A stretch of DNA of 64,000 nt from Candidatus Woesearchaeota archaeon (lineage in GTDB: Archaea > Nanobdellota > Nanobdellia > Woesearchaeales > JABIAG01): positions 32,001-96,000 of the forward strand of contig JABIAG010000002.1 in assembly GCA_018653365.1 (NCBI GenBank). The letters are read 5' to 3'. The position numbers and the translations under genes are program-made. The number at the start of each line of letters is the position of its first letter. The first letter of the stretch is position 1. Positions 67-27,689 of this stretch are shown here, piece by piece. The notes under the pieces are model-generated. The model was given only the letters and a program-made list of their open reading frames with translations, was not told where the DNA came from and did not search any database.

Positions 67-903
67 ATGACTACAAAATTAGTTGATATTGAATTACATG
101 CCCACCTGCACTTTGATCATTATAGTTTGTATGATGTAATTGAGGTAATGGAAGATAACATGTTGGATGTGCTTGTTCCATTACATTTTGGTTTTGGGTG
201 TTTTGATGAGGTGGCAATGGCTGCTAAAGATCTTCCTGAAGGGTTTTTTAAGGTGGAAAGGGATGAGTTAATGTTGAGAGTTGAACATGAGGGAATGTTC
301 TCTTATTTCTTACGAGGAGTAGAATTTTCAACTCAAGAAGCTAATTGTGATGTTGCCCACATGATTATGGTGGGGCATGATCAGTATGAAGAGAGGCAAC
401 CAATGGATGTTATGATTGATAGAGCATTAGATAAAGATGCACTAGTTATTCTGGATCATCCTTTTGTTGATGCTAAAAATTTGATGAAGGCAATAACTCC
501 TGAGATTGGTCTGGCTTTATTTGAGAGATGTAAAAGATATTCTGGTCGGGTAGCTTTGGAATATAATGGTTATTGTATCCCTTGGGTTAGAGCCCTTTTG
601 GGTGGTAAAGATGTTAATCAGTCTGTTCAGGATTTATCTTTGGCTTTGGAACTTGATGGGTCTAATGTTCCTGTTGTTTCAGGTACTGATCTCCATGCAA
701 GAACTAGAAGGTCATTAAATGCTTTAGGTACTGCTAGAACTTCTATGGATGTGGATACTTCTTCTGGGAGAGCTATGGTGGATTCGTTAAAACAGCAGAT
801 CTTTGATGGGTCACATACCAATAGATATCAAACAGTTCCTTTTTTTACTCATCTCGCACCTTGTTGGGCTATTCCTCATATGTATAGAAAGGTTATGGGT
901 TGA
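67..903 (+). CDS. PHP-family metal-dependent phosphoesterase-like protein
   Basis: ELHAHLH, GVE, DHPF and SGTDLH motifs typical of PHP domains. Confidence 0.65.
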   Translation: MTTKLVDIELHAHLHFDHYSLYDVIEVMEDNMLDVLVPLHFGFGCFDEVAMAAKDLPEGFFKVERDELMLRVEHEGMFSYFLRGVEFSTQEANCDVAHMIMVGHDQYEERQPMDVMIDRALDKDALVILDHPFVDAKNLMKAITPEIGLALFERCKRYSGRVALEYNGYCIPWVRALLGGKDVNQSVQDLSLALELDGSNVPVVSGTDLHARTRRSLNALGTARTSMDVDTSSGRAMVDSLKQQIFDGSHTNRYQTVPFFTHLAPCWAIPHMYRKVMG

Positions 904-906
904 ACA

Positions 907-1335
907 TTATTTTTTAATAAACGTTCTTATCATATTTGCTTTTTCTTTTCTTCCTGTTTTTTCATAACATTCTGCCTCTGTTTTAAGGTCAAAAACGTTT
1001 ACCTCAACTTCTGCACATTTGATTCTTTTTGTTTCATCTAATTTTCTGGAATAAATGCTAGTTTCGTAGTCGGCACAAATTTGTACTTCTACATCTTTGA
1101 TATGCACATTAAATTCTTCACATTCTTCAGAACTGTTTTTTTTGATTTCTGTGGTTTTGTAGTCTTTAAATGCACGTTTTACTTTTTGTATGTCTTTGTT
1201 TTTTATGAGAATGTCTAAATCTTTTGGTTTTGTGTTTATTCCTTGAAGTGCCAAGGAAGTGCTGCCTATTATTGCCCATTTAATGCTTAATCTATTAAGT
1301 ATTGATGCAACGTTTTTTATTACTTCAGATTTCAT
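907..1335 (-). CDS. Nucleotidyltransferase-superfamily protein
   Basis: WAIIGSTSLALQG...PKDLDIL (GS...DxD) motif. Confidence 0.7.
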   Translation of the reverse strand: MKSEVIKNVASILNRLSIKWAIIGSTSLALQGINTKPKDLDILIKNKDIQKVKRAFKDYKTTEIKKNSSEECEEFNVHIKDVEVQICADYETSIYSRKLDETKRIKCAEVEVNVFDLKTEAECYEKTGRKEKANMIRTFIKK

Positions 1336-1715
1336 TTCTTAATAAATTCTTTAAATGTATTCGGTAAATCAATCATGTATTTACCTTCAGAAAGTTTTAC
1401 TATTAATGGTTGTTTTTTAAACAAGCTAACCAGATCTAGTTCATACTTTCCTGGTTGCAATACGCGAACACTCTCAAAGTCTAGTATTACTGGGTCGTCT
1501 TTGTTCCAGTCCTGTCCTACTAAGTCAAAAACATCTTTTTCTAGTTCTGTTTTTTGTTCTTCGGATAACTTTTCAGCAAATTCTTGTTTTTTTAACTTTT
1601 CTAATTTTTCTTTTTTAATATAGAAGAATAATTTTCCACCGCAACTACATCCAGTTAGTATTGCTTTATCTCCGTCATCGTAGAAATTATTACACCGTAC
1701 ACATTGATGGGGCAT
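1332..1715 (-). CDS. oapC: OapC/ArvC (DUF2072) zinc-ribbon protein
   Basis: MPHQCVRC...GCSCGGKLFFY, ESVRVLQPGKYELDL; last gene of the GTPase/DUF2073/DUF2072 triad. Confidence 0.85.
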   Translation of the reverse strand: MPHQCVRCNNFYDDGDKAILTGCSCGGKLFFYIKKEKLEKLKKQEFAEKLSEEQKTELEKDVFDLVGQDWNKDDPVILDFESVRVLQPGKYELDLVSLFKKQPLIVKLSEGKYMIDLPNTFKEFIKK

Positions 1716-1716
1716 T

Positions 1717-2109
1717 TTATCGCTTTTTCCTCTTTTTGGTATCTTTTGTTAATAATTCGATTTTGTCAGGATTTTGTTTTATTTCTTTTACTACTGATGC
1801 TGGTCCGATTATCGTTAGTCCAGTTCTATTTTTCCAGATTGCATTCATCATACTCATTCTTAGTTTGGTTAATAGTGCTGCATCTTTTGATTCTGGATTG
1901 ATTACTGCTAGTTCGATTCCTTTGAATTTTTTACTAATCTCTTCCATTGTTATCGCAATTAGATCTTTTTCTTCTTCTTTTTTTAGACGTCCTTCTAATA
2001 ATACGATTTTGTTTTGTTTAACAATGTCAATTAGTTTTTTTACCCTCATTGCAGATCCCATATCGGAGATCTGAGTGTGTGGTACAAATTGTAGTGTTAG
2101 TCCGGCCAT
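1717..2109 (-). CDS. oapB: OapB/ArvB (DUF2073) protein
   Basis: IVLLEGRL..EE..LI..TM.EI...F.GIE and GLTIIGPA motifs; synteny. Confidence 0.85.
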   Translation of the reverse strand: MAGLTLQFVPHTQISDMGSAMRVKKLIDIVKQNKIVLLEGRLKKEEEKDLIAITMEEISKKFKGIELAVINPESKDAALLTKLRMSMMNAIWKNRTGLTIIGPASVVKEIKQNPDKIELLTKDTKKRKKR

Positions 2110-2111
2110 TT

Positions 2112-2741
2112 TTATTTTACTAGATCAAACAAGCTGTCGTAAAACTTATTCTTGTTCTTTCCATATTTCGCACTTATTCCCACAATTCCATATTGGGGAA
2201 ATGCGCTTTCTATCTTTTTTATATTTGATCTTTTTAAATCTATCTTATTTGCGACTATTAGGACGGGTATGTCTCGGGCCTGTAGATTTCCAATGATTGT
2301 TATGTTTACTTGAGAATATGGGTCTTCGGTTGAGTCTAGAACAACAATTACTGCGTCCATGTTATCTAACCATTTGATTGAGTCTATTACTCCTTTTGTT
2401 GCCTCTTTTGCTCTTTTTTTAGCTTCTTCTTTCTTCATTCCTTTTTTAATAAAGTCTTCATAATCGATTTTTGTTGCAATTCCTGGGGTGTCAACAAGAT
2501 TAAATGTTAGTTCTTTTCCATTTCTTTCTATGTTGATTTGTTCTTTTATGTGGACCTCTCTTGTTTCGTGTGCAACATTGGAGACTGATCCCATTTCTTC
2601 TCCTAGCCAATCTTTACATATCTGGTTTGCTAGAGTTGTTTTTCCGCCGTTTGGGGGTCCATAAAGTCCTAGTTTAACGTGCTTTTTCTTCTTAAATACA
2701 TTCTTCAGAAATTTGTTTACAAACCTTTTTACGAGCCCCAT
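2112..2741 (-). CDS. oapA: Era-like small GTP-binding protein OapA/ArvA
   Basis: GPPNGGKTT, HETR, DTPG, NKID, SAK motifs; synteny with oapB/oapC. Confidence 0.85.
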   Translation of the reverse strand: MGLVKRFVNKFLKNVFKKKKHVKLGLYGPPNGGKTTLANQICKDWLGEEMGSVSNVAHETREVHIKEQINIERNGKELTFNLVDTPGIATKIDYEDFIKKGMKKEEAKKRAKEATKGVIDSIKWLDNMDAVIVVLDSTEDPYSQVNITIIGNLQARDIPVLIVANKIDLKRSNIKKIESAFPQYGIVGISAKYGKNKNKFYDSLFDLVK

Positions 2742-2817
2742 ATTGATCCCCTTTTCTTCATTTTTTTATGCTGGATTGGTGCTTTATATACTTTTCTATT
2801 TTCTAATCCCATTAACA

Positions 2818-2859
2818 AGTTACCACTCACGAGTAGCACAAAAACAAAACATTTATATA
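2818..2859 (+). promoter_or_regulatory. BRE/TATA promoter with an upstream quasi-palindromic site, shared with 23820-23856
   Basis: 2823-2859 aligns ungapped to 23820-23856 at 28/37 positions and ends in the TTTATATA box. Confidence 0.55.
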
Positions 2860-2915
2860 TGAGTTATACGTTCTTACATCATATTAAATTTAAATAATAA
2901 AAAGAGGTTAAAAAA

Positions 2916-3578
2916 ATGGGACAAGCATGGAATGATTTTAAATTTGGATGCGCTTATCACCTTGGTGATTTGGGCATAGGACATTTTGCTACAGTTCTTG
3001 CTATTGCAGCAGCTGTTGGTGGATGTGCAAAGATTAGACCCGATAAACATGCAATGAATGCACTTACTGCTTTATGGCCTGAATCTGAGATAGTTCAATC
3101 TATGCCTGCAGAACCTGCAGAACCCGCTTTACCTAATGATCATTACGCTAACGAGTTAAGAAGTGCTTATAATTCTGCAATGACTTCCTTAGAAGGTAGA
3201 AAAGCAGAGATTATTCGTGCAACTGGTGCACAATCTAGTGAAGGAGGAATGTTAGCAAGTGTTTTGGGTATGGGAATTGATGCAAGACGTGCTCATGTTA
3301 ATGAAAGAAATTCTCGTTCAAGACGTAGTTCAAGACGTAAGTTTGATCATAAAAATTGGGATCGTGCTGCAAATCACGCTGTTGAAGGTGCTGATATTTA
3401 CTTTTCAGTTCCAGAAATTGAGGCAGATGTTGCTGCTTTAAGCCGAGAGTACGATCGGATTCTTGCTGATGGAGAAGTTACTAGAGCAGAAGCATCACGT
3501 TTCAGACCTAAACTGGATCTAGCAGTTGCAAGAAGTGGTTATGGTAAACGTAGACGTTCTACTAGAGGAATTTTTTAA
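2916..3578 (+). CDS. Orphan exported protein, possibly a lipoprotein
   Basis: Hydrophobic stretch ending AAAVGG-C; Arg-rich segments. Confidence 0.55.
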   Translation: MGQAWNDFKFGCAYHLGDLGIGHFATVLAIAAAVGGCAKIRPDKHAMNALTALWPESEIVQSMPAEPAEPALPNDHYANELRSAYNSAMTSLEGRKAEIIRATGAQSSEGGMLASVLGMGIDARRAHVNERNSRSRRSSRRKFDHKNWDRAANHAVEGADIYFSVPEIEADVAALSREYDRILADGEVTRAEASRFRPKLDLAVARSGYGKRRRSTRGIF

Positions 3579-3583
3579 TTTTT

Positions 3584-5074
3584 TTAAATTATTGTTTCTT
3601 TATAATTATCAGTAACCCACTTTAGTAAGGTAGTTATTTGATCGTCAGTTAATGTTGATGCCTTTGTGCTTAGTTGATTTTTAATACCTTTAACTTCTTC
3701 ACTTGTTAGTTTACAAGTTAGTTGAAATGGACTAAATTGCATTGCATTATTGTTGGGTTGTGTTACCTTGATATTTGCTCTTTGGGCCTGTTTTAAATCA
3801 TAATTGTAATCTGCTTTTAGAGTAGTACCTAACCTTCCTCCATGTTGACGTTGACTTCTTTCAAAAAACTCTTTTACAACTTCAAATAAGTTATCTCGTT
3901 TTTCTTTATTCTCTTGATCTATCTTTTGTGTACTTTCTAGTGCTTTTTTAATTGCTTCTTCTACTTGTTTCTCTCTTTGTTCGGCAGTTCTTAGGTTTCC
4001 TGCAACTTCTTTGTGTAGTGCATTTATTGCTGCGGGTTTAGCATTTACAACTAGTTTTCTTACCTTGAATTTTGTACTTGCTATTAGTGCTTCAAAAAAT
4101 TGAGCAAAACTTTTTCTGGTATTTTGTAACTTGCTAATTTGTGAGTTAAATCTGGTTATTTGTGTTGGATCAAAATCATTTGCTGCAAGGGTATTTTGTA
4201 TCGTTGTAATCATTTGATCAATATTTTGTATTTCTGCAATGTTATCTTCATTTTGTTTAAATTCTGTTTGTATATCGCTTAATTTGTGTTCGGCATTTTC
4301 TAAGACTTGTTTTCCTTCGGTACTTGTTCCGAATAGGTTTTGTATTGCTTTAAAGTTTGGGTGTGAAACATCAAATCGAGGTATGTTTCGTATTACTGTT
4401 GTTAATGCTTTTGTGTAAGCGCTTAGATTTGGTCTAATGTTGTGTGCATTTAGGTCATGTATTTTAGATGCCCCTTCTGTTAACATTCCTGAAGGGTCAT
4501 CGTTTAGAAATGCGTTGTCTCGTAAGTTTTTAACTGAAGCATTTATTGTATTTCTTGCACTGTCCATTAACTCTAGCCCTTCTGCTTCCATGGTCATTAT
4601 CGCACCCCTGTTTTTCGCCCAGACGCCTTTTAGTGCGAGTAACATTAGTACTACCACTACGACGATTGCAAATAACCCTACAATGGCCGTCATTCCAAAG
4701 AAGAATGCAACTAATCCTGCAATCATTTCTATTACTGGTGCCGCAAAGATTGATGTTAATGTTAACCCTATTGCTAGTCCTTTATGAACAGACTCTGTAT
4801 CTCCAAGTACTCTTTCTAAGAATTTTTTTGATAGTCCGAAAAATATAAAGTATAATCCAATACCCACGCCAATTGCTAACCAAATAAGAACTTTTTCACG
4901 TCCATAGTTTGCTGGGTGGGGTATTACTATCTCAAATGTTGCCACTTCATCTAACATGTCTAAAGATGGCTTTAACGGTGTTCTTCTTTCTACATCGTCT
5001 ACAGCAAATACAGAAACTGTGGATATTAAAACTAAGGTTAGAACAATCATCCACAGTAATATTTTTTTGTTCAT
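3584..5074 (-). CDS. Hypothetical membrane protein with a long coiled-coil C-terminal region
   Basis: Signal-like N-terminus, several TM segments, helical Q/K/E-rich tail. Confidence 0.6.
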   Translation of the reverse strand: MNKKILLWMIVLTLVLISTVSVFAVDDVERRTPLKPSLDMLDEVATFEIVIPHPANYGREKVLIWLAIGVGIGLYFIFFGLSKKFLERVLGDTESVHKGLAIGLTLTSIFAAPVIEMIAGLVAFFFGMTAIVGLFAIVVVVVLMLLALKGVWAKNRGAIMTMEAEGLELMDSARNTINASVKNLRDNAFLNDDPSGMLTEGASKIHDLNAHNIRPNLSAYTKALTTVIRNIPRFDVSHPNFKAIQNLFGTSTEGKQVLENAEHKLSDIQTEFKQNEDNIAEIQNIDQMITTIQNTLAANDFDPTQITRFNSQISKLQNTRKSFAQFFEALIASTKFKVRKLVVNAKPAAINALHKEVAGNLRTAEQREKQVEEAIKKALESTQKIDQENKEKRDNLFEVVKEFFERSQRQHGGRLGTTLKADYNYDLKQAQRANIKVTQPNNNAMQFSPFQLTCKLTSEEVKGIKNQLSTKASTLTDDQITTLLKWVTDNYKETII

Positions 5075-5077
5075 TCT

Positions 5078-5515
5078 CTATCTCCTTGAATTTGGACTAT
5101 TTAAACCTTGCGATTTTTCTTTAATGATTTCTTCAACTTCGTTATGTGTTGCAAAGTTTATTGGATTCCAGGCATCTAAGTATTTTCTTAAAGTATCTAC
5201 TTCTTCTCTTCGTGCAAAGTTTTTTAGATCTGCAGCCATTTCTACTATTCTTCTTTTTATTAGTCCTATTTCTTTTTCTAATTCCATCATTTTTGAATTG
5301 ATGGTTTTGAGTTCGACGTTTTGTCTTTTATTTATGCTTAGAATGTTGTTTTCAATTAGTTCAGTTTTTCTATCTAAATTTGATAAGCGTTCTTCAATTA
5401 CTTTTACTGCACGTAGTGCTCTTCCTTCTGTGGGAGAAAATGTTGGGGCTTTTTTTGGCGTTTCTTTCTTCTTGCCAAAGGATATTACCTTCTTACCATC
5501 TTTTTCTTCTATCAT
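5078..5515 (-). CDS. Hypothetical coiled-coil protein, divergent from the pilus ATPase
   Basis: 145-aa ORF with heptad character; C-terminal KYLDAWNP. Confidence 0.6.
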   Translation of the reverse strand: MIEEKDGKKVISFGKKKETPKKAPTFSPTEGRALRAVKVIEERLSNLDRKTELIENNILSINKRQNVELKTINSKMMELEKEIGLIKRRIVEMAADLKNFARREEVDTLRKYLDAWNPINFATHNEVEEIIKEKSQGLNSPNSRR

Positions 5516-5588
5516 TTTTCATAATAAAAACTTTTAAATACCCATTGATTCAATACTATATTAATGTTTTGTAAAAAGAGGTGTATTG

Positions 5589-7856
5589 ATGCCTGAGGAT
5601 AAGGAATATAGTTACGAGGTAGTGCGCGAAGGTTCTGATGTAATTCTTAAAGTGAACTATGAGAATGTACTGAGTCCGCCCTCTATAGAGGAGGATCCGG
5701 TTTGTATGTCTCGTACTATTAATATGCTTTTAGAAGCGGGTAAAGTTACAAAACTTATCTTTCAACAGAAACGTGATTTTGAGTATGATTTTGATCAGGT
5801 TCAAATTATTCAAGAGATCGCTTCATTATATAACAAGTTTGTTAAAAATCGAGATTTGATGACGTTTCTACTTGCAAAAGATAATCCTGCTTCAAAATCT
5901 AGACAGGCACTTTTACAAAAGTTTGTTTATAGTATAATGAAAAAGGATCCTTTGGGTGCTTATGTTTTAATTAGAAGGGAGAGAAGAGAACAGGAACACA
6001 TTCTTGAATCTGACCCAAATAATCTTGATAAAGAAACTATTCAAGAGTTTGCTAGAGTTTTGGATCATATGCTTGATGAGTTTGAAGCAACAGCATTAAT
6101 TAAACTTGCTCAACCTTATGTTATGGGATATAAGTTGGGTGATCGTTCAATTTATAAGAAACTTTTCCATCCTACAATTAAACCTGATTTTATGTTTACT
6201 AAGCTTATGGCTTCATATCCTCAGGAAGGGGAGGTTTTAGCTAATTATTCAATTGCTAATACGGATGTTACTATTTTTGAACTTCCTGGTTCTGTTAATT
6301 ACTTGTATCATATTGTTCCTCCTGAGTTTAAACTTACTGAAGCAAAGTATGATTTATTAGACACTGCTAGATCTATAATGGCAGAACACAAACCTACTCG
6401 TTCCGAGTTTGTTAATCCTGCATTGATGCGTGAAGTTTTCTATAATGTTGGTCATGACTTAATTGAGGAGTTAGCAAACAAGCAGGATGTAAGACTTAGA
6501 TTAAAAGAGATCGATGAACTGGCAGAAATCTTAGTTCGATACACTGTCGGTTTTGGGTTAATAGAAATCTTACTTAATGATCCTCAAATTCAAGATATCT
6601 CTATCAATTCTCCAATGGGTAATATTTCAATGTTTATTGTTCATGGCGAGTTTGGAGATTGTAAAACTAATATTATTCCTACTGCTTCTGATGGAGAGTC
6701 CTGGGCTACTAAACTGAGATTGATGTCTGGTCGTCCTTTAGATGAAGCTAACCCTATTCTTGATACTGAACTCGAACTACCAACAGTTAGGGCGAGAATT
6801 GCAGTTATTTCTCCACCGTTAAACCCGTCAGGGTTAGCGTACTCTTGGCGTCGTCACAGAATTAAACCCTGGACGTTACCATTATTTATAAAATATAAAA
6901 TGATGAATCCCTTGGCAGCAGGTTTGATGTCTTTTATTGTTGATGGTGCACGAACTATTCTTGTTGCCGGAACACGTTCCGCTGGTAAGACCTCTTTGTT
7001 GGGAAGTTTGATGGTAGAACTTATGAGGCGGACTAGAATTATTACTGTTGAGGATACTTTAGAACTTCCTTCAGATGCATTAAGAAAGTTTGGTTATAAT
7101 ATTCAACCCTTAAAAGTTGCTGCAGCTCTTTCTAAGGGGTCTAGTGAAGTTCCTGCAGATGAAGGAATTCGGTCTACTTTAAGGTTAGGCGATTCGGCTT
7201 TGTTTGTTGGTGAAGTTCGTTCCACTGAGGCCAAGGCTTTGTACGAAGCTATGAGGGTTGGAGCACTAGCAAATGTTGTTGCAGGTACAATTCACGCAGA
7301 CTCACCGTATGGTATTTATGATAGGGTTGTTAATGATTTAGGCGTTCCTAAAACCTCTTTTAAAGCTACTGATATTGCACTTGTTGCTAATCCAATTAGA
7401 AGTCCGGATGGAATTCATCGTTGGAGAAGGGTCACACAAATTACTGAAGTTAGAAAATTCTGGGAAGAGGATCCTTTGAGAGAAAACGGATTTGCTGATT
7501 TAATGAAGTATGACGCAACAACTGACGAATTACAAGAATCTGAGGTTTTAATTAATGGTGAATCTGAAATTCTTAAGGCAATTGCAGGTAATGTTAAGGA
7601 ATGGGCAGGTAATTGGGATGCAGTGTGGGATAATGTTTTGTTAAGAACTAAGATTAAAGAAAGAGTTGTCAAGGCCGCTGCACAAACGGGAGATGACAAC
7701 TTATTAGAAGCGGGTTTTGTTATTGTTGCAAATGATGAATTTCATAAGATTTCAGAAAGGGTTCGTGAGGAGGTTGGAGCTCTGGATTCAGATCGAATTT
7801 ATTTTGAGTGGGAGTCTTGGTTAAAAACTGCGTTAACTAAAAAGAAATTTTTATAA
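5589..7856 (+). CDS. Type IV pilus/type II secretion assembly ATPase (TadA/FlaI/VirB11 family)
   Basis: Walker A GTRSAGKTS, TVEDTLEL, VGEVR, GTIHADS; SD-like GAGGTG upstream of ATG 5589. Confidence 0.92.
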   Translation: MPEDKEYSYEVVREGSDVILKVNYENVLSPPSIEEDPVCMSRTINMLLEAGKVTKLIFQQKRDFEYDFDQVQIIQEIASLYNKFVKNRDLMTFLLAKDNPASKSRQALLQKFVYSIMKKDPLGAYVLIRRERREQEHILESDPNNLDKETIQEFARVLDHMLDEFEATALIKLAQPYVMGYKLGDRSIYKKLFHPTIKPDFMFTKLMASYPQEGEVLANYSIANTDVTIFELPGSVNYLYHIVPPEFKLTEAKYDLLDTARSIMAEHKPTRSEFVNPALMREVFYNVGHDLIEELANKQDVRLRLKEIDELAEILVRYTVGFGLIEILLNDPQIQDISINSPMGNISMFIVHGEFGDCKTNIIPTASDGESWATKLRLMSGRPLDEANPILDTELELPTVRARIAVISPPLNPSGLAYSWRRHRIKPWTLPLFIKYKMMNPLAAGLMSFIVDGARTILVAGTRSAGKTSLLGSLMVELMRRTRIITVEDTLELPSDALRKFGYNIQPLKVAAALSKGSSEVPADEGIRSTLRLGDSALFVGEVRSTEAKALYEAMRVGALANVVAGTIHADSPYGIYDRVVNDLGVPKTSFKATDIALVANPIRSPDGIHRWRRVTQITEVRKFWEEDPLRENGFADLMKYDATTDELQESEVLINGESEILKAIAGNVKEWAGNWDAVWDNVLLRTKIKERVVKAAAQTGDDNLLEAGFVIVANDEFHKISERVREEVGALDSDRIYFEWESWLKTALTKKKFL

Positions 7857-7857
7857 A

Positions 7858-10101
7858 ATGAATGGAAGTATAAAGGAGTTAAAAAAGAGGTATAGAGATG
7901 AGCTTGAGAAAAAGCTAACCGTTTCTTCTGATGATTTAAAACCTATTAAGACTAAAGAGTATGTTCAGTTTAAAAAAGAGTTAAAACCCAAGTCTGTTGA
8001 CTGGTATGAAAAATTATGTAACTCTTTTGAACACATTTTCAAATTTACTCCCTCTCCTAAAGCTAGACAAAAATTATTAGAACAAATTAACATAGCTCAT
8101 ATGAATGTTACGCCCGAGGGAGTTTACACCCTTTCATATTTACTTCCTCTCTCTTTACTTTTGCTTTCTGTTGTTGGTTTTGCGCTTGTTCCAATGTTGA
8201 TTGGGGGCAATATTTCCATGTTTTTCTTGGGGATGGCCATGATTGTTAGTTTATTATTGATCGTGCCTTTGCAAAAATATCCTTCTTATTTGGCCACGGC
8301 TTGGCGGTTGAAATCTTCTAATCAGATGGTTTTGTGTGTGTTTTATCTTGTTACTTATATGCGTCAATCCTCTAATCTTGAACGAGCAATAGAGTTTGCA
8401 GGCGATCATTTGGATCCTCCTCTTTCTTTGGATCTTAAAAAAATATTGTGGAACGTTGAAAACAGAACATTTAGCTCTATGACTGATGCTCTGGATGAGT
8501 ATCTAATAAGTTGGAAGCGATTTAGTGATGAATTCATTGATGCTATTCATTTAATTCAGTCCTCTTTATTGGAGGGGAATGAGAGTAGACGGTTGGCACT
8601 TCTTGACAAGTCTTTAGATGTTATTCTTGAAGGCACTTATGAAAAAATGTTGCATTATGCTCAAAATCTTAAGAACCCAATTACAACCTTGCACATGTTG
8701 GGTGTTATTCTACCTGTTTTAGGTCTAGTTATCCTGCCTTTGGCGGTTAGTTTTATGGAGGGTTTGCAGTGGTATCATCTTGCAGTATTTTATAATTTTT
8801 TATTGCCAATTGTTGTATTCTTTCTTTCTAAGAGTATTCTTTCGACGCGTCCTGCTGGTTATGGTGATTCAGATATTAGTGAGCACATTAAGGGTTTGAA
8901 GAAATATAAGAAAGTGGGTATTTTTGGTAAGAAGATTAGAATGTCTCCTGCATTAATTGGGGGCATGATTTTTGTTGTTCTTCTTTTAATTGGTTTAATT
9001 CCAATATTTGTTTTTCCTGCAGGTGTTGAAGATACGTGTTGGGATTTCAAAAATGAAGGCTTCTTTTGTAATGATATTGAGGAAGAGGCCTGTCGTATTA
9101 CTTATTGTGCTTGGCAGTATAAGCTAGTTGAAGGGCAATTTTCTCAGTTAATTCTTAATCCTAATTCTTTTGATGTTCGTGATAAGTTAGATCGTGGTGC
9201 GGACGTTATTGGACCTTTTGGGGTCATTGCAGCACTGATGAGTTTACTAATTCCAATTGGTGCAGGTGTTGGTTTGGGTTATTATTATAAGATGCGTTCC
9301 ACTCGTGTTCTAAAAGTTAGAAAAGAAACAAAGATGATGGAGAAAGAGTTCTCTACTGCACTATTTCAGTTAGGTAATCGGTTGGGTGATGGTCTGCCTG
9401 CAGAACTCGCAATTCCTCGGGTTGCTACAATTATGGAGGGTAGTATCTCTGGTAATTTTTTCTCTCAAGTAAGTATGAACATGCAGAAGTTGGGAATGGG
9501 TTTGGCACCTGCTATTTTTGATAAAGAACATGGTGCAATTAATTATTTCCCTTCTAAAATTATTGAATCCGCTATGAAAGTTTTGGTAGAGTCGGTTAAG
9601 AAAGGTCCTTTGGTGGCTGCTCAGGCAGTTAATAACATTGCACGGTATATTAAAGAGATACATCGTGTTAATGAACGTTTAAAGGATTTGCTTGCAGATA
9701 TTATCTCCTCTATGCGTCAGCAAATTAATTTCCTTGCACCTATGATTTCAGGTGTTGTTGTGGGTATCACTTCTATGATTACGTTTATTCTTGGTAGGTT
9801 AAAGACTCAGGCTGCTGGTTTTGATGTTGGTGATGCTTCCTCTTTCCTTACTATGATGGGTGAAGGAATTCCTACGTATTTCTTTCAGTTAGTTGTTGGT
9901 TTGTATGTTGTTGAGATAGTTTTCATCTTGTCTATTATGGCAAATTCTATTGAGAATGGTAATGATAAGTTGGGTGAACGTGCCACTCTTGGTAAGAACT
10001 TACTTAAGTCCACTATGTTATATGCAACTATTGCTTTCTTTGTAATGATGGCCTTCCAGTTAATGGCTGGTGAGATAATTAGTAAAACTGGTTTGATTTA
10101 A
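7858..10101 (+). CDS. Type IV pilus platform membrane protein (T2SSF/TadC/FlaJ-like, two repeats)
   Basis: Multi-TM; directly follows the ATPase; two T2SSF-like soluble domains. Confidence 0.8.
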   Translation: MNGSIKELKKRYRDELEKKLTVSSDDLKPIKTKEYVQFKKELKPKSVDWYEKLCNSFEHIFKFTPSPKARQKLLEQINIAHMNVTPEGVYTLSYLLPLSLLLLSVVGFALVPMLIGGNISMFFLGMAMIVSLLLIVPLQKYPSYLATAWRLKSSNQMVLCVFYLVTYMRQSSNLERAIEFAGDHLDPPLSLDLKKILWNVENRTFSSMTDALDEYLISWKRFSDEFIDAIHLIQSSLLEGNESRRLALLDKSLDVILEGTYEKMLHYAQNLKNPITTLHMLGVILPVLGLVILPLAVSFMEGLQWYHLAVFYNFLLPIVVFFLSKSILSTRPAGYGDSDISEHIKGLKKYKKVGIFGKKIRMSPALIGGMIFVVLLLIGLIPIFVFPAGVEDTCWDFKNEGFFCNDIEEEACRITYCAWQYKLVEGQFSQLILNPNSFDVRDKLDRGADVIGPFGVIAALMSLLIPIGAGVGLGYYYKMRSTRVLKVRKETKMMEKEFSTALFQLGNRLGDGLPAELAIPRVATIMEGSISGNFFSQVSMNMQKLGMGLAPAIFDKEHGAINYFPSKIIESAMKVLVESVKKGPLVAAQAVNNIARYIKEIHRVNERLKDLLADIISSMRQQINFLAPMISGVVVGITSMITFILGRLKTQAAGFDVGDASSFLTMMGEGIPTYFFQLVVGLYVVEIVFILSIMANSIENGNDKLGERATLGKNLLKSTMLYATIAFFVMMAFQLMAGEIISKTGLI

Positions 10102-23815: not shown

Positions 23816-23856
23816 TTCACCACTCAAAGGTAACACATAACCAAAAACTTTAAATA
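23816..23856 (+). promoter_or_regulatory. BRE/TATA promoter with an upstream site shared with 2823-2859
   Basis: CCACTCAAAGGTAACACATAACCAAAAACTTTAAATA; 28/37 ungapped identity. Confidence 0.55.
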
Positions 23857-23882: not shown

Positions 23883-24893
23883 ATGAGACAAATGCTTGCT
23901 AAATACAGTGGTGCACTAAGAGATTCTTTTAATTATGCTAGACGTACTTCTGTTTCTGATGCTGGTAAAGACCTTAGTTCTTATGTTGGTCGTGTTGCAG
24001 GTGATGCTAGATCTTATGTTTCTGATGCACGGGATTCTATTGGTGAATTTTCTAATGGATTTTTTTCTAATGGATTTGTTAGCTCGATGAGACGTTTAAG
24101 TGGTAATCCTATGCAATCTTTGGCTTTTGCTGGTGGTTATGCTCAACGTATGCCTGAAGATAGACAACAAGAACTTGCTGGTCGTGGTTATGATGCTTTA
24201 AGAGCTCAACACGGTAAAGGTGCGGGTAAAGCACTTGAAAAACTTCAATCTCAACATAAAGATTTCACACTTATAGAATTACTTGTAGTAATTGCAATTA
24301 TAGCAATTCTTGCAGGTATGTTACTTCCTGCTTTGGCTGGTGCTAGAGAAAAAGCAAGATCTTCACAATGTATTAATAATTTGAAACAGCAAGGACTTGC
24401 TGCAACAATGTATGCTCAAGATTATGAAGGAATGTTCCCACAAGCTTCTGGAGCAGACCCTTATGTTACGCCTACAATTAGATTGCGAGCGGGTGCTACA
24501 GCAATTATGGGGGCTGGAAGACTTATTGATGGAAATTATGGTGTTGGGCCAGAACAATTTGAATGCCCTTCTAATTCTAATAAGTGGTTTAGGGGAGGAA
24601 AAGTGGTAAGTAATTGGGGGAGTTTAGCAACTGTTGATAATGCTTACATGTGGACTGGTATGCGAAATATCCGAAGGGATAGATCTCCAACTAGTTCTGT
24701 TTTGGCTTTTGATGCCAACGTTCTTGGTGGCGGAAGTGCAAGTAATGGTCATCCTGGTGGGGTTAATTTAGTTCGTGCAGATGGTGGAGCACAACGTGAG
24801 AACGATACTGCGGGAATTTCTCGTCCATTGACTAGTTCTAGTACTAATATGGCTGATGCTTCAGATCGTTTACAAACCCAATTTGGTCAATAG
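23883..24893 (+). CDS. Bacterial-type prepilin N-methylation-domain protein (DUF1559/H-X9-DG family) with a 127-aa N-terminal extension
   Basis: [42 protein letters not shown]...MYAQDY; FECPS; [12 protein letters not shown]. Confidence 0.88.
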
Positions 24894-24937: not shown

Positions 24938-24982
24938 GTTAAACATATTAACCTAATTTAACAGGTTAAACTTGTTTAACTA
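24938..24982 (+). promoter_or_regulatory. Five tandem 9-bp iterons (RTTWAMCNN), putative RHH operator
   Basis: GTTAAACAT ATTAACCTA ATTTAACAG GTTAAACTT GTTTAACTA between the TATA box and ATG. Confidence 0.7.
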
Positions 24983-25140
24983 TGAAGTCAAATAAACTAA
25001 TTAAAAATCTTGATGAACAAACCTGGAATAAGTTTGTTGCTTTCTGTAAGCTAAAGAATGTTAAGGTAGCTCCTGAACTCGAAATCATAATAAATACGCA
25101 TTTAGATAAGAATCTAAAACAATTGTTCAATAAAAAATGA
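24982..25140 (+). CDS. Small ribbon-helix-helix-like DNA-binding protein (52 aa, not in the ORF track)
   Basis: MKSNKLIKNLDEQTWNKFVAFCKLKNVKVAPELEIIINTHL...; stop overlaps the next ATG (ATGA). Confidence 0.65.
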   Translation: MKSNKLIKNLDEQTWNKFVAFCKLKNVKVAPELEIIINTHLDKNLKQLFNKK

Positions 25141-27689
25141 AAAATAGAATACTTGCATCACTAACCTTGGTTTTTGCACTTTTCGCAGTGTTTGCATTTT
25201 ATAATCAGGGGATTACGGGGTTTGTTGTTAATGTGGGGGCATGTAATTTTAATGCAGATAGTGTGGGAGAAACATACACTTTATCAGGAAACCTGGGAAC
25301 TTGCTCTGGGGAAAATGCAATTAATGTTTTAGCTAATAACATTATTGTTGATTGCAATGGTAATGAGATCATTGGAAATGGGGTGGCGGGGAGCGCAATG
25401 GGTATAAATGTGGGTGCTAGTCTGACGGGAATCACCCTCAAGAATTGCATAATTAAAGATTTTCTTTTTGGTATTTCAACTGCGGGTTCGGGGGTTTCTA
25501 TTGAAAACGTTCAGATTTATGATGATGATATGAGCTCTTGTTATACTGGAGGAAATCCCACTGAAGTTGGAGATCTTAATTACTGCGGTGCCGAAGCTGA
25601 TCTGCCGGTAACAGACAATGCTCCAACTATAACATCTTTAGATTTTCCTCCTGATGATGAAACTATTATTAATGTTCCTGTTGATTTTAATTTTACTGTT
25701 TGGGATGATTTTAATGTTTCTACCTGTGACTTGTGGTCGAACTTTAGCGGTACGTGGGAATTAAACTCTTCCATTGCTCCTGAGAATAATCACTCTGAAA
25801 CGTTTAATTTTACCCTATCGCCTTTGGATGGCGAATATATTTGGAATGTTAATTGTACTGATAATGCAACAACTCCTAATTCTGTTTGGTATGCTGCAGG
25901 TAATTATTCAGTAACTATCAACACAACTGATCCTCCTCCAACCATTACAGAATTAACTCATCCCTCTTCAACGTTTAGTGCGATTGCCGAACCTTTGGAT
26001 TTTAATTTCACTGTTCATGATAATTGGAATGTTTCAAATTGTTCTTTGTGGACAAATATTTCAACTGTTTGGGCTGAAACTGCGTTTAGAACTATTGGTA
26101 CTAATGTTTCTGCCACATATAATATTTCGTTGGTTGTTGGTGTGGGAGACTATATTTGGAATGTTAATTGTACTGATAATGCTTCTAATTCTTCGTGGTA
26201 TGTGTCTAATGCTTCAGTTGTTATTTCTGATCCTGCTCCAACATTAAGCTTATATTCTCCAAGTTCTGCTTCAACAGTTTCTGCAGTTCCTATGAATTTT
26301 ACGTTTAATGTTTCTGATAATTATAATGTTTCGAGTTGTTCTTTATTTGCTAATTTTAGTGGAGCTTGGAGTCAGAATGATTCTTTGGAAATTCAAAATA
26401 ACACTCAAGGTATTTACAACTTGACTCTTTCCCCGACTGATGGAATTTATTTGTGGGGTGTTAATTGTTCAGACAATGCATCTCAAACAACTTGGTCTGA
26501 TAATTATACTGTTACTGTCAATGCAGTGGATGATTATCCTACGGTGACTCTGGCTTCGCCAAGTAATGCAGCATCAATTACTGCATCGTCAACTACTTTG
26601 CAAATTACAACTTTGGATGATTATAATGTTACGGCTTGTACTTTGTGGACTAATTTTAATGGTTCTTGGGCAGCTAATGAAACCCTGAATGTTAGTGTTC
26701 CTGCTTCCACAACAACGTCATTTACTGTCTCTCCAGCATATGGTACTTATACTTGGAATGCTAATTGTACTGATAATGCTTCTCAGTCTTCTTGGGCAGC
26801 AGATAATTTCACATTTGCTTTACAACAAGCTACAACAACTAGTAATACTGGGGGAAGTAGTGGGGGGGGAAGCGATGACGATGATGAGGAAGAGGTTACT
26901 CCTGCTCTTGTCATTCCTGCTGTAGTTCCTGTTGAAGAAGAGGAAGAAGAAGTTGAAGAAGTCATTGAGGAAGTTGTTGAAGAAGAATTGTTTGCTCCGC
27001 CTGTTGAGGAAGAGGAAGCAGAAAAACAAGAATCAATATCAAATGCAAAAAGGTCAAAATCAGAGATAGTTGAGGTAGAGTGTGATCCTGCAGAGAGTAA
27101 TTGTGATGAATGGTTTGATAACTTAATAACAAAGATGGATCGTACTTTGGATAAGGTTGATTTGACAAAGAATGTGACTTTTGATAACGAAACTAATACT
27201 ACTAAAGTCGCGATTAGTATTGTTCCTGAAGAGGATCTTGAAGATTTCAGGTATTATCAAAGTATTCCGAAGTGTATGGCAATTTATGTTCACTTAGTTA
27301 AGTTTAAGAATACTGATTTCGAGGTATTAAAAGACGATCCTTTGATTGTTTGGAGTTTTGCAAATGTTCAAAAAGGTGAAGAATTAGATCTTGGTTTTGA
27401 GGTTATGGGTGACATTCCAGAGAATTGTTATGAATTCATTTCCGAACTTCTTTATGAAGAACAAGAAAAGTTTTCTGGTAAGCATATGTTTGGGTTGATC
27501 ACTGGTTTGTCAGTTCTTGGTTTGGTTGCTTTGGGTATTACGTATTCTTCTAAGTATTCACACCATTTAGTTGCTGCTAAGAATGTTGGAACTAAGTTCT
27601 TTAAGAAATCATCTAAGTCTGAGATAAAAGTACCTGCTAAGGTTGATAAAAAGATCGATATCATCAAAGAAAGGATGAAACAATTATAA
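25137..27689 (+). CDS. Large cell-surface glycoprotein: beta-helix-like N-terminus, four ~100-aa Ig-like repeats, acidic linker, TM anchor
   Basis: Repeated FNFTV.D..NV..C.LW.N / YIWNVNCTDNA; many N-x-S/T sequons; GITGFVV after the N-terminal helix. Confidence 0.8.
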   Translation: MKNRILASLTLVFALFAVFAFYNQGITGFVVNVGACNFNADSVGETYTLSGNLGTCSGENAINVLANNIIVDCNGNEIIGNGVAGSAMGINVGASLTGITLKNCIIKDFLFGISTAGSGVSIENVQIYDDDMSSCYTGGNPTEVGDLNYCGAEADLPVTDNAPTITSLDFPPDDETIINVPVDFNFTVWDDFNVSTCDLWSNFSGTWELNSSIAPENNHSETFNFTLSPLDGEYIWNVNCTDNATTPNSVWYAAGNYSVTINTTDPPPTITELTHPSSTFSAIAEPLDFNFTVHDNWNVSNCSLWTNISTVWAETAFRTIGTNVSATYNISLVVGVGDYIWNVNCTDNASNSSWYVSNASVVISDPAPTLSLYSPSSASTVSAVPMNFTFNVSDNYNVSSCSLFANFSGAWSQNDSLEIQNNTQGIYNLTLSPTDGIYLWGVNCSDNASQTTWSDNYTVTVNAVDDYPTVTLASPSNAASITASSTTLQITTLDDYNVTACTLWTNFNGSWAANETLNVSVPASTTTSFTVSPAYGTYTWNANCTDNASQSSWAADNFTFALQQATTTSNTGGSSGGGSDDDDEEEVTPALVIPAVVPVEEEEEEVEEVIEEVVEEELFAPPVEEEEAEKQESISNAKRSKSEIVEVECDPAESNCDEWFDNLITKMDRTLDKVDLTKNVTFDNETNTTKVAISIVPEEDLEDFRYYQSIPKCMAIYVHLVKFKNTDFEVLKDDPLIVWSFANVQKGEELDLGFEVMGDIPENCYEFISELLYEEQEKFSGKHMFGLITGLSVLGLVALGITYSSKYSHHLVAAKNVGTKFFKKSSKSEIKVPAKVDKKIDIIKERMKQL

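Follow-up and report, generated by a model that had tools for sequence, protein, structure and literature searches.

A bacterial-type pilin-like protein with a conserved front domain, encoded beside a surface-protein gene in a Woesearchaeota archaeon

DPANN archaea rely on contact with other cells, and their attachment apparatus is little known. We describe here a gene for a bacterial-type pilin-like protein with a long N-terminal domain in a 64,000-nucleotide stretch of DNA from a Candidatus Woesearchaeota archaeon (assembly GCA_018653365.1, contig JABIAG010000002.1; this whole stretch is called the window, and positions refer to it unless a contig is named). The gene lies at 23883..24893 on the forward strand and its product, P0001, has 336 residues. 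The integrity of the gene, its bacterial affinity, its adaptation to the host, selection on the N-terminal domain and on the pilin helix, drift of the residue that precedes the pilin start and the adjacency of a surface-protein gene are directly supported. We lean towards an account in which inter-domain transfer was followed by conversion to a pilin-like protein that is probably uncleaved, is anchored with its N terminus inside the cell and works together with the surface protein. A bacterial hallmark, the Phe1/Glu5 type IV pilin with a DUF1559 head, entered several DPANN lineages and has long been kept under selection there. The borrowed part was rebuilt, with a new front domain that is found only on such pilins and a link to a native surface-protein gene. 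In the literature searched, nothing describes such a protein or links DUF1559 or prepilin-type N-terminal domains to DPANN archaea.

The open reading frame (ORF) list, the Pfam and TIGR scores and a codon analysis define the gene as a whole, and its product has three parts. Residues 1-127 (23883..24263), the front domain, are predicted to be cytoplasmic and helical and are delimited by a profile search, sequence identities and an AlphaFold2 (AF2) model. Residues 128-160 (24264..24362) are the hydrophobic segment alpha1-N of a class III signal peptide, as seen with TIGR02532 and in alignments, and residues 161-336 (24363..24890) form the globular DUF1559-type pilin head, as seen in the Pfam match, the AF2 model and structural matches. 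The segment alpha1-N starts with FTLIELL, whose Phe128 and Glu132 take pilin positions +1 and +5; both residues are invariant across the alignments. The residues before Phe128 read QSQHKD, which puts Asp127 (codon GAT) at position -1 and Lys at -2. The FTLIELL segment is followed by a stretch A-R-E-K-A-R..C-I-N-N-L-K-Q that is typical of DUF1559 proteins. The motifs MYAQDY and CPS are both present, and the head contains two conserved cysteines, Cys163 and Cys228, along with a literal H-x9-DG that spans residues 290-301 (nucleotides 24750-24785). H290-x9-D300-G301 aligns with the conserved H...DG columns of the homologues, H290 being at least 90% conserved in a 68-sequence alignment. A preliminary description of this DNA had listed the frame, the pilin start at residue 128, the KD ahead of it, MYAQDY, CPS and H-x9-DG, and reading the sequence confirmed all of them.

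Profile scores agree with this layout. The Pfam family PF07596 (DUF1559/SBP_bac_10) matches at 41.7 bits (E 1.9e-10), above its gathering threshold of 23.3; in a six-frame search of the genome the DUF1559 profile gives the gene 38 bits. The prepilin N-terminal domain TIGR02532 scores 21.5 bits against a cut-off of 16.3. For PF07963 (N_methyl) the protein reaches 21.1 against a cut-off of 21.2, and the six-frame genome search gives 24.6 bits; the window gene is the sole N_methyl-type match of that search in the whole genome.

The AF2 model of the full protein (mean predicted local distance difference test score, pLDDT, of 71.7) has a lollipop shape, in which the helical front is followed by a break (residues 125-129), then by an alpha1 of 50 residues and the beta head. 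Helix 130-180 and the beta domain are modeled with a pLDDT of 74-95 over most of 130-310, and a low-confidence loop spans 191-208. The best VIA-align matches are bacterial pilins and pseudopilins: PilA4 (6xxd_A) with a Z of 6.8 and a root-mean-square deviation of 3.1 over 123 aligned residues, then the type IVb pilin of enterotoxigenic Escherichia coli (9iuf_A, Z 6.0) and EpsG (4lw9_A, Z 5.2), with ComP, PilV, PilE, TcpA and PulG also at top ranks. Several of these alignments begin by matching model residues 124-128 to residue 1 of the chain, the mature Phe1. A Z below 8 is moderate, and Foldseek with the full model returned nothing at E <= 0.001, although pilins ranked first. The protein thus shares Phe+1, Glu+5, the hydrophobic alpha1-N and the lollipop fold with bacterial type IV pilins and the pseudopilins of the type II secretion system (IPR012902, TIGR02532, PF07963).

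Sequence searches place the pilin part with bacteria. In a protein search, 7975 of 8000 scored candidates match the window protein, nearly all of them 190-290 residues long with N_methyl and DUF1559; most of the candidates are nameless, and the few matches that carry a name are from Omnitrophota, Victivallales or Verrucomicrobiia. A contig scan with one genome per species confirmed at least 486 of 600 candidate stretches, with only bacterial loci among the matches listed. The best 80 confirmed stretches are nearly all from metagenome-assembled genomes (MAGs) of Verrucomicrobiota, Lentisphaerota, Planctomycetota, Kiritimatiellia or Omnitrophota. The likeness to the DUF1559 H-X9-DG proteins of PVC bacteria and Omnitrophota lies in a near-identical alpha1-N, a Pfam score above the gathering cut-off, the pattern A(R/K)..A....C.NNLKQ..LA...Y..D, a second Cys and a C-terminal H...N....DGH-like strand. 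There are differences as well. DUF1559 proteins of Planctomycetota, Verrucomicrobiota, Lentisphaerota and Omnitrophota number tens to hundreds per genome in bacterial hosts, whereas this archaeon has one copy; and the conserved N-terminal domain of 127 residues takes the place of the 4-30 residue leader of the bacterial proteins. That a small-genome archaeon encodes a bacterial pilin-like protein of the PVC-style DUF1559 type, as the preliminary description had seen, holds: such proteins are sparse in archaea, and the named matches come chiefly from PVC bacteria and Omnitrophota. Its proposal of inter-domain transfer is also the best account of the counts: about 8 of 401 sampled genomes of the order carry the gene, against 7975 of the 8000 candidates and at least 486 of the 600 stretches. 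We therefore consider that the C-terminal two thirds of the protein, alpha1-N and the DUF1559-type head, derive from PVC/Omnitrophota-type bacteria by inter-domain transfer. The counter-explanation raised in that description, a broad archaeal clade with vertical inheritance, fails: there is no such clade.

The pilin-like gene is nevertheless a real and long-resident archaeal gene. The window takes up positions 32001-96000, in the middle of a 106.6-kb contig, and the genome comprises 1.09 Mb in 3 contigs with a GC content of 0.340 (94.9% complete, 0.24% contamination). Archaeal markers within the window include a clamp loader of the RFC type, NurA, ELP3 and a tRNA with a presumed intron; the window also encodes an ATPase of the T2SSE family. 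The GC content at third codon positions (GC3) is 0.155 in the pilin-like gene, where the genome mean is 0.239 (sd 0.040), and its synonymous-codon fit stands at the 96.7th percentile of 843 ORFs of the genome. Its total GC of 0.403 (97th percentile) owes the excess to codon positions 1 and 2 only (Ala, Gly, Arg). A TATA-like box, TTTAAATA (23848..23855, forward strand), can be read about 28 nucleotides upstream of the ATG at 23883; it would fit an archaeal promoter for a leaderless or short-leader mRNA starting at that ATG, and the gene is probably well expressed. An independent JGI contig, L003, holds a 54%-identical pilin copy followed by a 51-residue ORF (76%) and then a large protein (66%). 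On the contig of a homologue, the flanking genes are 50-70% identical to those of the window genome, and the lysyl-tRNA synthetase there is named by NCBI as 'Nanoarchaeota archaeon'.

Because of the host-like codon usage, the promoter, the position within the contig and the independent syntenic assemblies, chimerism and recent contamination are excluded as far as can be judged from the DNA. The chimeric assembly that the preliminary description had raised as a concern fails on these same grounds. Contaminants are indeed present in this group, since in two other archaeal MAGs of the order the contigs that bear such pilins are foreign in composition. For the window gene, however, we find it scarcely credible that an assembly chimera, a binning contaminant or a functionless, decaying remnant of a transfer is at hand: GC3, codon fit and promoter are like those of the host, it lies well inside a long contig and the genome is close to closure, independent assemblies contain syntenic copies, and the frame is unbroken, two of its three parts being under purifying selection. 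No att-like direct repeats turned up between tRNA-His and tRNA-Thr, in the region around 20-29 kb, and there is thus no evidence for an integrated element.

Further carriers came to light when other DPANN genomes were searched, as the preliminary description had advised. Among close relatives 3 of 41 genomes carry the gene, namely the window genome (G000), G001 of the same genus and G003 of the same family. The sample of the order has matches in 10 of 401 genomes, or about 8 (about 2%) once two probable contaminant contigs are set aside, and the sample of the phylum in 6 of 401. Two of the latter, G565 and G499, belong to a different order within the class, from which one genome is counted as a carrier of such a long-extended pilin. 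These tallies take in five genomes flagged as unpublished (G004, G135, G186, G210 and G212), on which only the counts depend. The two pilins set aside lie on contigs L014 (genome G392, GC 0.68) and L017 (G086, GC 0.58), compared with a GC of 0.29-0.37 at the other archaeal loci; both contigs are probably bacterial contamination of the two archaeal MAGs.

The remaining archaeal DUF1559-like copies all carry an extension of 63-372 residues before FTL(I/V)ELL. In contrast, 98 of 121 database matches have fewer than 20 residues ahead of the motif. The extension measures 127 residues, with Asp at -1, in the window protein; 281 (Asp) in G001, 143 (Pro) in G003, 147 (Ala) in G176, 363 (Asn) in G165, 372 (Ala) in G079 and 63 (Gly) in G565; and 120 (Asn), 119 (Lys) and 148 (Gly) in L003, P0004 and P0005, respectively. 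The gene is thus not a one-off, but a member of a scattered archaeal set, all of it long-extended. The extensions of G001, G165 and G079 form a second family with the motif K-W-A-Y-D-M...F-G-x-E-A-A-(R/K)-N-P. When profiles of the window-type front domain (A4) were compared with the G001/G165/G079 type (A3), and with the extensions of G003 and G176, no homology emerged; the extensions hence fall into at least two or three kinds that are unrelated to each other. Another bacterial-type pilin, of a second kind, was seen in two archaeal genomes of the same order (L015 1195-1740 in G109 and L016 1201-1758 in G254). These proteins have about 180-190 residues, the start G-E-(R/K)-G-M-T-L-I-E-L-L, leaders of 44-49 residues with Gly at -1, a GC of 0.44 and a head unlike DUF1559.

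The trees of the pilin domain are poorly resolved. The window protein pairs only with the copy on L003 (SH-aLRT support of 98-99). The approximately unbiased (AU) test rejects one clade for all long-extension rows (p-AU 0.00013) but not one for the window-type rows (p 0.138). The G165 protein pairs with the short-leader protein P0031, whose contig looks bacterial (GC 0.545, PVC-like neighbors), and the nearest tree neighbor of the G003 protein is the short-leader P0009 on contig L104, which also looks bacterial. Such pairings of archaeal with short-leader proteins would fit several transfers or head swaps. The phylogeny that had been proposed as a way to the donor identified none, with the trees too poorly resolved to name one and the origin of most short-leader rows presumed. 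On L104 (ENA contig ctg8628l), positions 374-7642 hold 6-7 paralogous pilin genes of about 215 residues, P0009 among them, with very short leaders and a GC of 0.327.

The 127 residues ahead of the pilin helix had been described as a leader; they are better seen as a domain. A profile of four window-type front parts, searched against 1.84e9 representative proteins, gave 12 matches, about 11 of them credible and one a fragment. Every full-length credible match directly precedes an FTL(I/V/A)E(L/I)L pilin. The match to P0140, a repeat protein (E 8e-4), was judged spurious. The motifs of the front domain are Y-(L/A)-x-x-T-S-V-(S/T)..DL, A-F-A-G-x-Y-A, Q-x-x-L-A-x-x-G-Y-D-x-L and a K-(K/H)-K before the Phe. 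Identity between the window protein and P0004 is 72% in the front domain, 94% in alpha1-N and 27% in the head; with P0003 the values are 54%, 91% and 48%. An AF2 model from a 13-row alignment shows residues 60-125 as three helices (pLDDT 79-89) and residues 1-55 at low confidence. No Pfam family matches any of the extensions, and a fold search with the front-domain model returned non-specific helical matches only (best Z 5.0). P0134 and P0138 have a window-type front domain with another head, which is GspG-like, and they group with the G079 protein (SH-aLRT 97); extension and head have therefore recombined. The 127 residues thus represent a conserved domain family under purifying selection, seen only on such pilins.

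An internal start at Met90, the nearest in-frame ATG, was considered and set aside: the leader would still have 38 residues, and residues 1-89 are conserved in homologues. Within the front-domain coding sequence, a 16-nucleotide direct repeat (23947-23962 and 24013-24028) encodes (T/S)-(S/Y)-V-S-D-A twice, a trace of internal duplication.

The persistence of the bacterial-type alpha1-N in archaea can be explained by selection. In the six window-type copies for which DNA is at hand, alpha1-N is 69-88% identical in amino acids and 31-58% identical at third codon positions, save for the closest pair with 73%. Since the amino acids are conserved while the third positions are saturated, this segment has been kept by purifying selection and not by recency. 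Position -1 has drifted. The codons GGT (L001), GAT (window) and AAT (L003), then Lys in P0004, form a chain of single-base steps, and the relatives as a whole show G, A, D, N, K, H and P. Leader peptides are stated in a recent review to end invariably in Gly or Ala, with the peptidase cutting right after (PMC10191384), whereas the 127 residues of the window protein end in Asp, directly before the hydrophobic segment.

The type of prepilin peptidase, another point that the preliminary description wished to see checked, could be determined: the genome has two archaeal A24 prepilin peptidases (L009:1489-2313 and L010:823-1869), one with an Arc_PepC domain, and the bacterial methylase domain (A24_N_bact) was not found in this 94.9% complete genome. 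Because -1 is Asp here and Asn or Lys in the closest relatives, cleavage by A24 peptidases probably does not occur; judged from sequence, the balance on this point is close to even and tips slightly towards an uncleaved protein. Archaeal type IV pilins (the FlaFind-type substrates of PibD, FlaK or EppA) resemble the window protein in the predicted N-in topology and in Lys at -2, and its genome also has the A24 peptidases, an ATPase of archaeal type and numerous class III-like candidates. The window protein has neither the short [KR][GA] signal nor the Pilin_N match of this group; the single genome match to PF07790 (Pilin_N) reaches 17.8 bits, well below the cut-off of 25.2, and comes from a different locus on contig C1. 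A crude motif scan lists 21 candidate class III-like N-termini in the genome, and the window gene is not among them. The native candidates are short, mostly with K/R-G ahead of the hydrophobic stretch and without Glu5, in contrast to the entirely bacterial affinity of the window protein. Outside the window, genes with short archaeal class III-like N-termini, mostly K/R-G plus a hydrophobic stretch, are clustered at 34.6-88.9 kb of contig C1, along with an ORF of 7512 residues (C1:59697-82232); this is probably a native pilin or surface-protein locus.

The most informative context of the pilin-like gene is the adjacent surface-protein gene, and not the distant pilus ATPase; the preliminary description had missed this pairing. 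The surface protein, P0142, has 850 residues (25137..27689, forward strand) and is defined from the ORF list, sequence features and homologues. Its layout comprises a signal peptide, about four 100-residue repeats rich in N-x-S/T, an acidic linker, a membrane-proximal C-terminal domain, a transmembrane (TM) segment and a Lys-rich tail. The C-terminal domain (residues about 637-790, nucleotides 27045-27506) reads I-P-K-C...D-P-(L/V)-I-x-W-x-F...(E/D)-D-C. Of 401 genomes of the order, 142 have this domain, often in multiple copies and in proteins of up to about 5100 residues (open-frame length), and no Pfam family matches it. This domain is a native, widespread anchor module of the order, which makes the pilin-like gene a rare addition ahead of one such gene. 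Taken with the TM segment (27045-27689, 215 residues; also in L110, L111, L113, L108 and L003), it looks like an anchor module that has yet to be described.

The pilin-like gene directly precedes a P0142-like gene on the same strand at six loci (G000, L003, G003, G176, G079 and L108), with downstream homology that spans residues 637-848 of P0142. In some loci a small ribbon-helix-helix (RHH)-like ORF lies between the two. In the window this ORF has 52 residues (24982..25140, forward strand), its stop overlaps the start of the surface-protein gene, and it is 76% identical to the ORF at the same position on L003; similar small ORFs or N-terminal extensions are present at the G079 and G176 loci. 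The three adjacency loci of known family besides the window belong to families f1, f76 and f77. Adjacency retained across families points to a functional link. A complex prediction for the pilin-like protein and the C-terminal 221 residues of P0142 scored 0.00, which counts neither for nor against binding. The 745-residue protein downstream in G565 was rejected as a homologue, as it is without the C-terminal domain of P0142. By eye, toxin-antitoxin-like small genes flank the cassette in L110 7667-8860 (G003), L113 7249-8569 (G079) and L111 1-629 (G176), with likenesses to AbrB/MazE, to HEPN plus nucleotidyltransferase and to PIN plus HicB. If this reading is correct, the pilin/surface-protein cassette sits in variable islands.

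In the account that we favor, the hydrophobic alpha1-N would act as an internal signal-anchor, so that the N-terminal domain would stay cytoplasmic and the head would face outwards. With Asp at -1 the A24 peptidases would probably not cut, so that a bitopic membrane protein would stay in place. The pilin-specific character of alpha1-N would be kept presumably because the segment still docks to pilins or to an assembly platform like that of type IV pili, and the head together with the co-located large surface glycoprotein would be part of a cell-surface or attachment apparatus. A cytoplasmic N-terminal domain, one TM segment and an outside domain are the plan of platform proteins of the GspL and PilN/PilO type. 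The likeness to these bitopic proteins is one of predicted plan (a cytoplasmic helical domain, one TM segment, an extracytoplasmic alpha/beta domain); no sequence or fold similarity to them was detected, and the TM segment and outside domain here are a true pilin.

Several observations weigh against this account. With regard to the family, the PF07596 alignment covers residues 154-198 only, which are profile positions 3-46 of 268. The hidden Markov model searches that the preliminary description called for gave a divided answer: TIGR02532 and DUF1559, and N_methyl in six frames, were above their cut-offs, and the H-X9-DG model TIGR04294 gave no score on the window gene. With regard to the surface protein, the adjacency is absent at G001, L001 and G565, and it could partly reflect the shared descent of one insertion and not function. 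In the window, 88 bp with a promoter-like region of their own separate the pilin gene from the RHH/surface-protein pair, so that any co-transcription is hypothetical. With regard to cleavage, Gly is kept at -1 in 7 of 12 aligned members of the front-domain family, so the ancestral form at least was probably processed. Only 60 of 121 database matches have Gly at -1, and the family may for that reason use peptidases that tolerate other residues. The strict conservation of Phe1 and Glu5 is most simply that of a true pilin, with cleavage and filament packing.

This last point favors the main alternative reading, which we consider possible but unlikely. The protein would be a genuine prepilin with a giant pro-domain, from which a relaxed A24 peptidase removes 127 residues, and the mature pilin would join an archaeal pilus as a minor or tip subunit. 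In agreement with such a role, Phe1, Glu5 and the whole of alpha1-N are near-invariant under saturated synonymous change, Lys or His-Lys is conserved at -2/-3, the break at residues 125-129 of the model falls exactly at the junction, and a residue other than Gly at -1 is common for this pilin family in the databases. The genome would also supply the machinery, with its pair of A24 peptidases, a type IV pilus ATPase with a platform-like gene and its many candidate class III-like N-termini. But Asp, Asn, Lys, His and Pro at -1 contradict the Gly/Ala rule (PMC10191384). A pro-peptide that is discarded is not expected to be more conserved than the exposed head, nor to reach 281-372 residues with motifs of its own, as it does in relatives. 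The bacterial-type methylase domain was not found, and the signals of the native candidate pilins differ from that of the window protein. 

The pilus genes of the window lie 14 kb upstream of the pilin-like gene, at 5586..10101 on the forward strand, and encode a type IV pilus ATPase (archaeal/Tad-type, 756 residues) and a polytopic platform-like protein (747 residues). The ATPase (5586-7856) has a T2SSE domain (E 5.8e-14), and in the PDB it comes closest to 2oap ('Type II secretion system protein'; the Archaeoglobus GspE homologue), followed by CpaF and FlaI. The platform-like neighbor gives a weak T2SSF signal only (E 0.09). Of the ATPase/platform pair named in the preliminary description, the ATPase is thus well founded and its partner weakly signalled; the only tie of the pair to the pilin-like gene is that they share a genome.

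The preliminary description had also suggested that the protein might be displayed on the archaeal pilus, which is the prepilin reading above, or might imitate the pilin of a bacterial partner. Neither receives direct support, and Asp at -1 makes doubtful the cleavage that incorporation into a pilus needs. We regard it as very unlikely that the protein targets or mimics the bacterial type IV filaments of a PVC/Omnitrophota-type partner, and that it would thereby mark a bacterial host or neighbor. The bacterial consensus of alpha1-N is preserved in a genome in which neither a second N_methyl-type protein nor the methylase domain was found and in which the ATPase is archaeal/Tad-type, and this would suit a bacterial target. 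The pilin parts of the long-extension proteins do not form one clade relative to short-leader sequences, and several pair with differing short-leader sequences, which would fit repeated exchange with bacteria. Nothing supports a delivery route, however, and the label 'bacterial' for most short-leader rows of a poorly resolved tree is presumed. A shared habitat alone explains gene flow, and the partner in the conserved pair is a native archaeal surface protein, nothing bacterial.

A bolder version of the account with an anchored, uncleaved pilin is that it represents a new class of archaeal surface component. An uncleaved pilin would dock to the archaeal type IV pilus platform through its alpha1-N, the lineage-specific front domain would couple it to the cell interior, exchangeable heads of the DUF1559 or GspG type would be re-acquired time and again from PVC bacteria and Omnitrophota, and the unit as a whole would organize or anchor the giant glycoprotein next to it that serves attachment; the repeated exchange would then mark a physical association of DPANN archaea with bacteria. 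We offer this as conjecture and think it improbable as a whole. The gene has uses that do not depend on it. DUF1559 is among the largest bacterial families to which no function is assigned, and a single copy free of paralogue noise provides a testable handle on it. The loss of the cleavage-site glycine is a natural experiment on the role of the pilin alpha1-N, and the gene can be used to trace the passage of genes between ultra-small archaea and bacteria of the PVC/Omnitrophota type.

Two further observations were made elsewhere in the window. A tRNA match at 63839-63970 (forward strand) spans 132 nucleotides, which is longer than normal and presumably due to an intron; ARAGORN did not report it. 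At 2916-3578 (forward strand), adjoining the pilus ATPase region, lies an Ala/Arg-rich ORF of 220 residues with one N-terminal hydrophobic segment and no Pfam match, and its composition resembles that of the pilin front domain.

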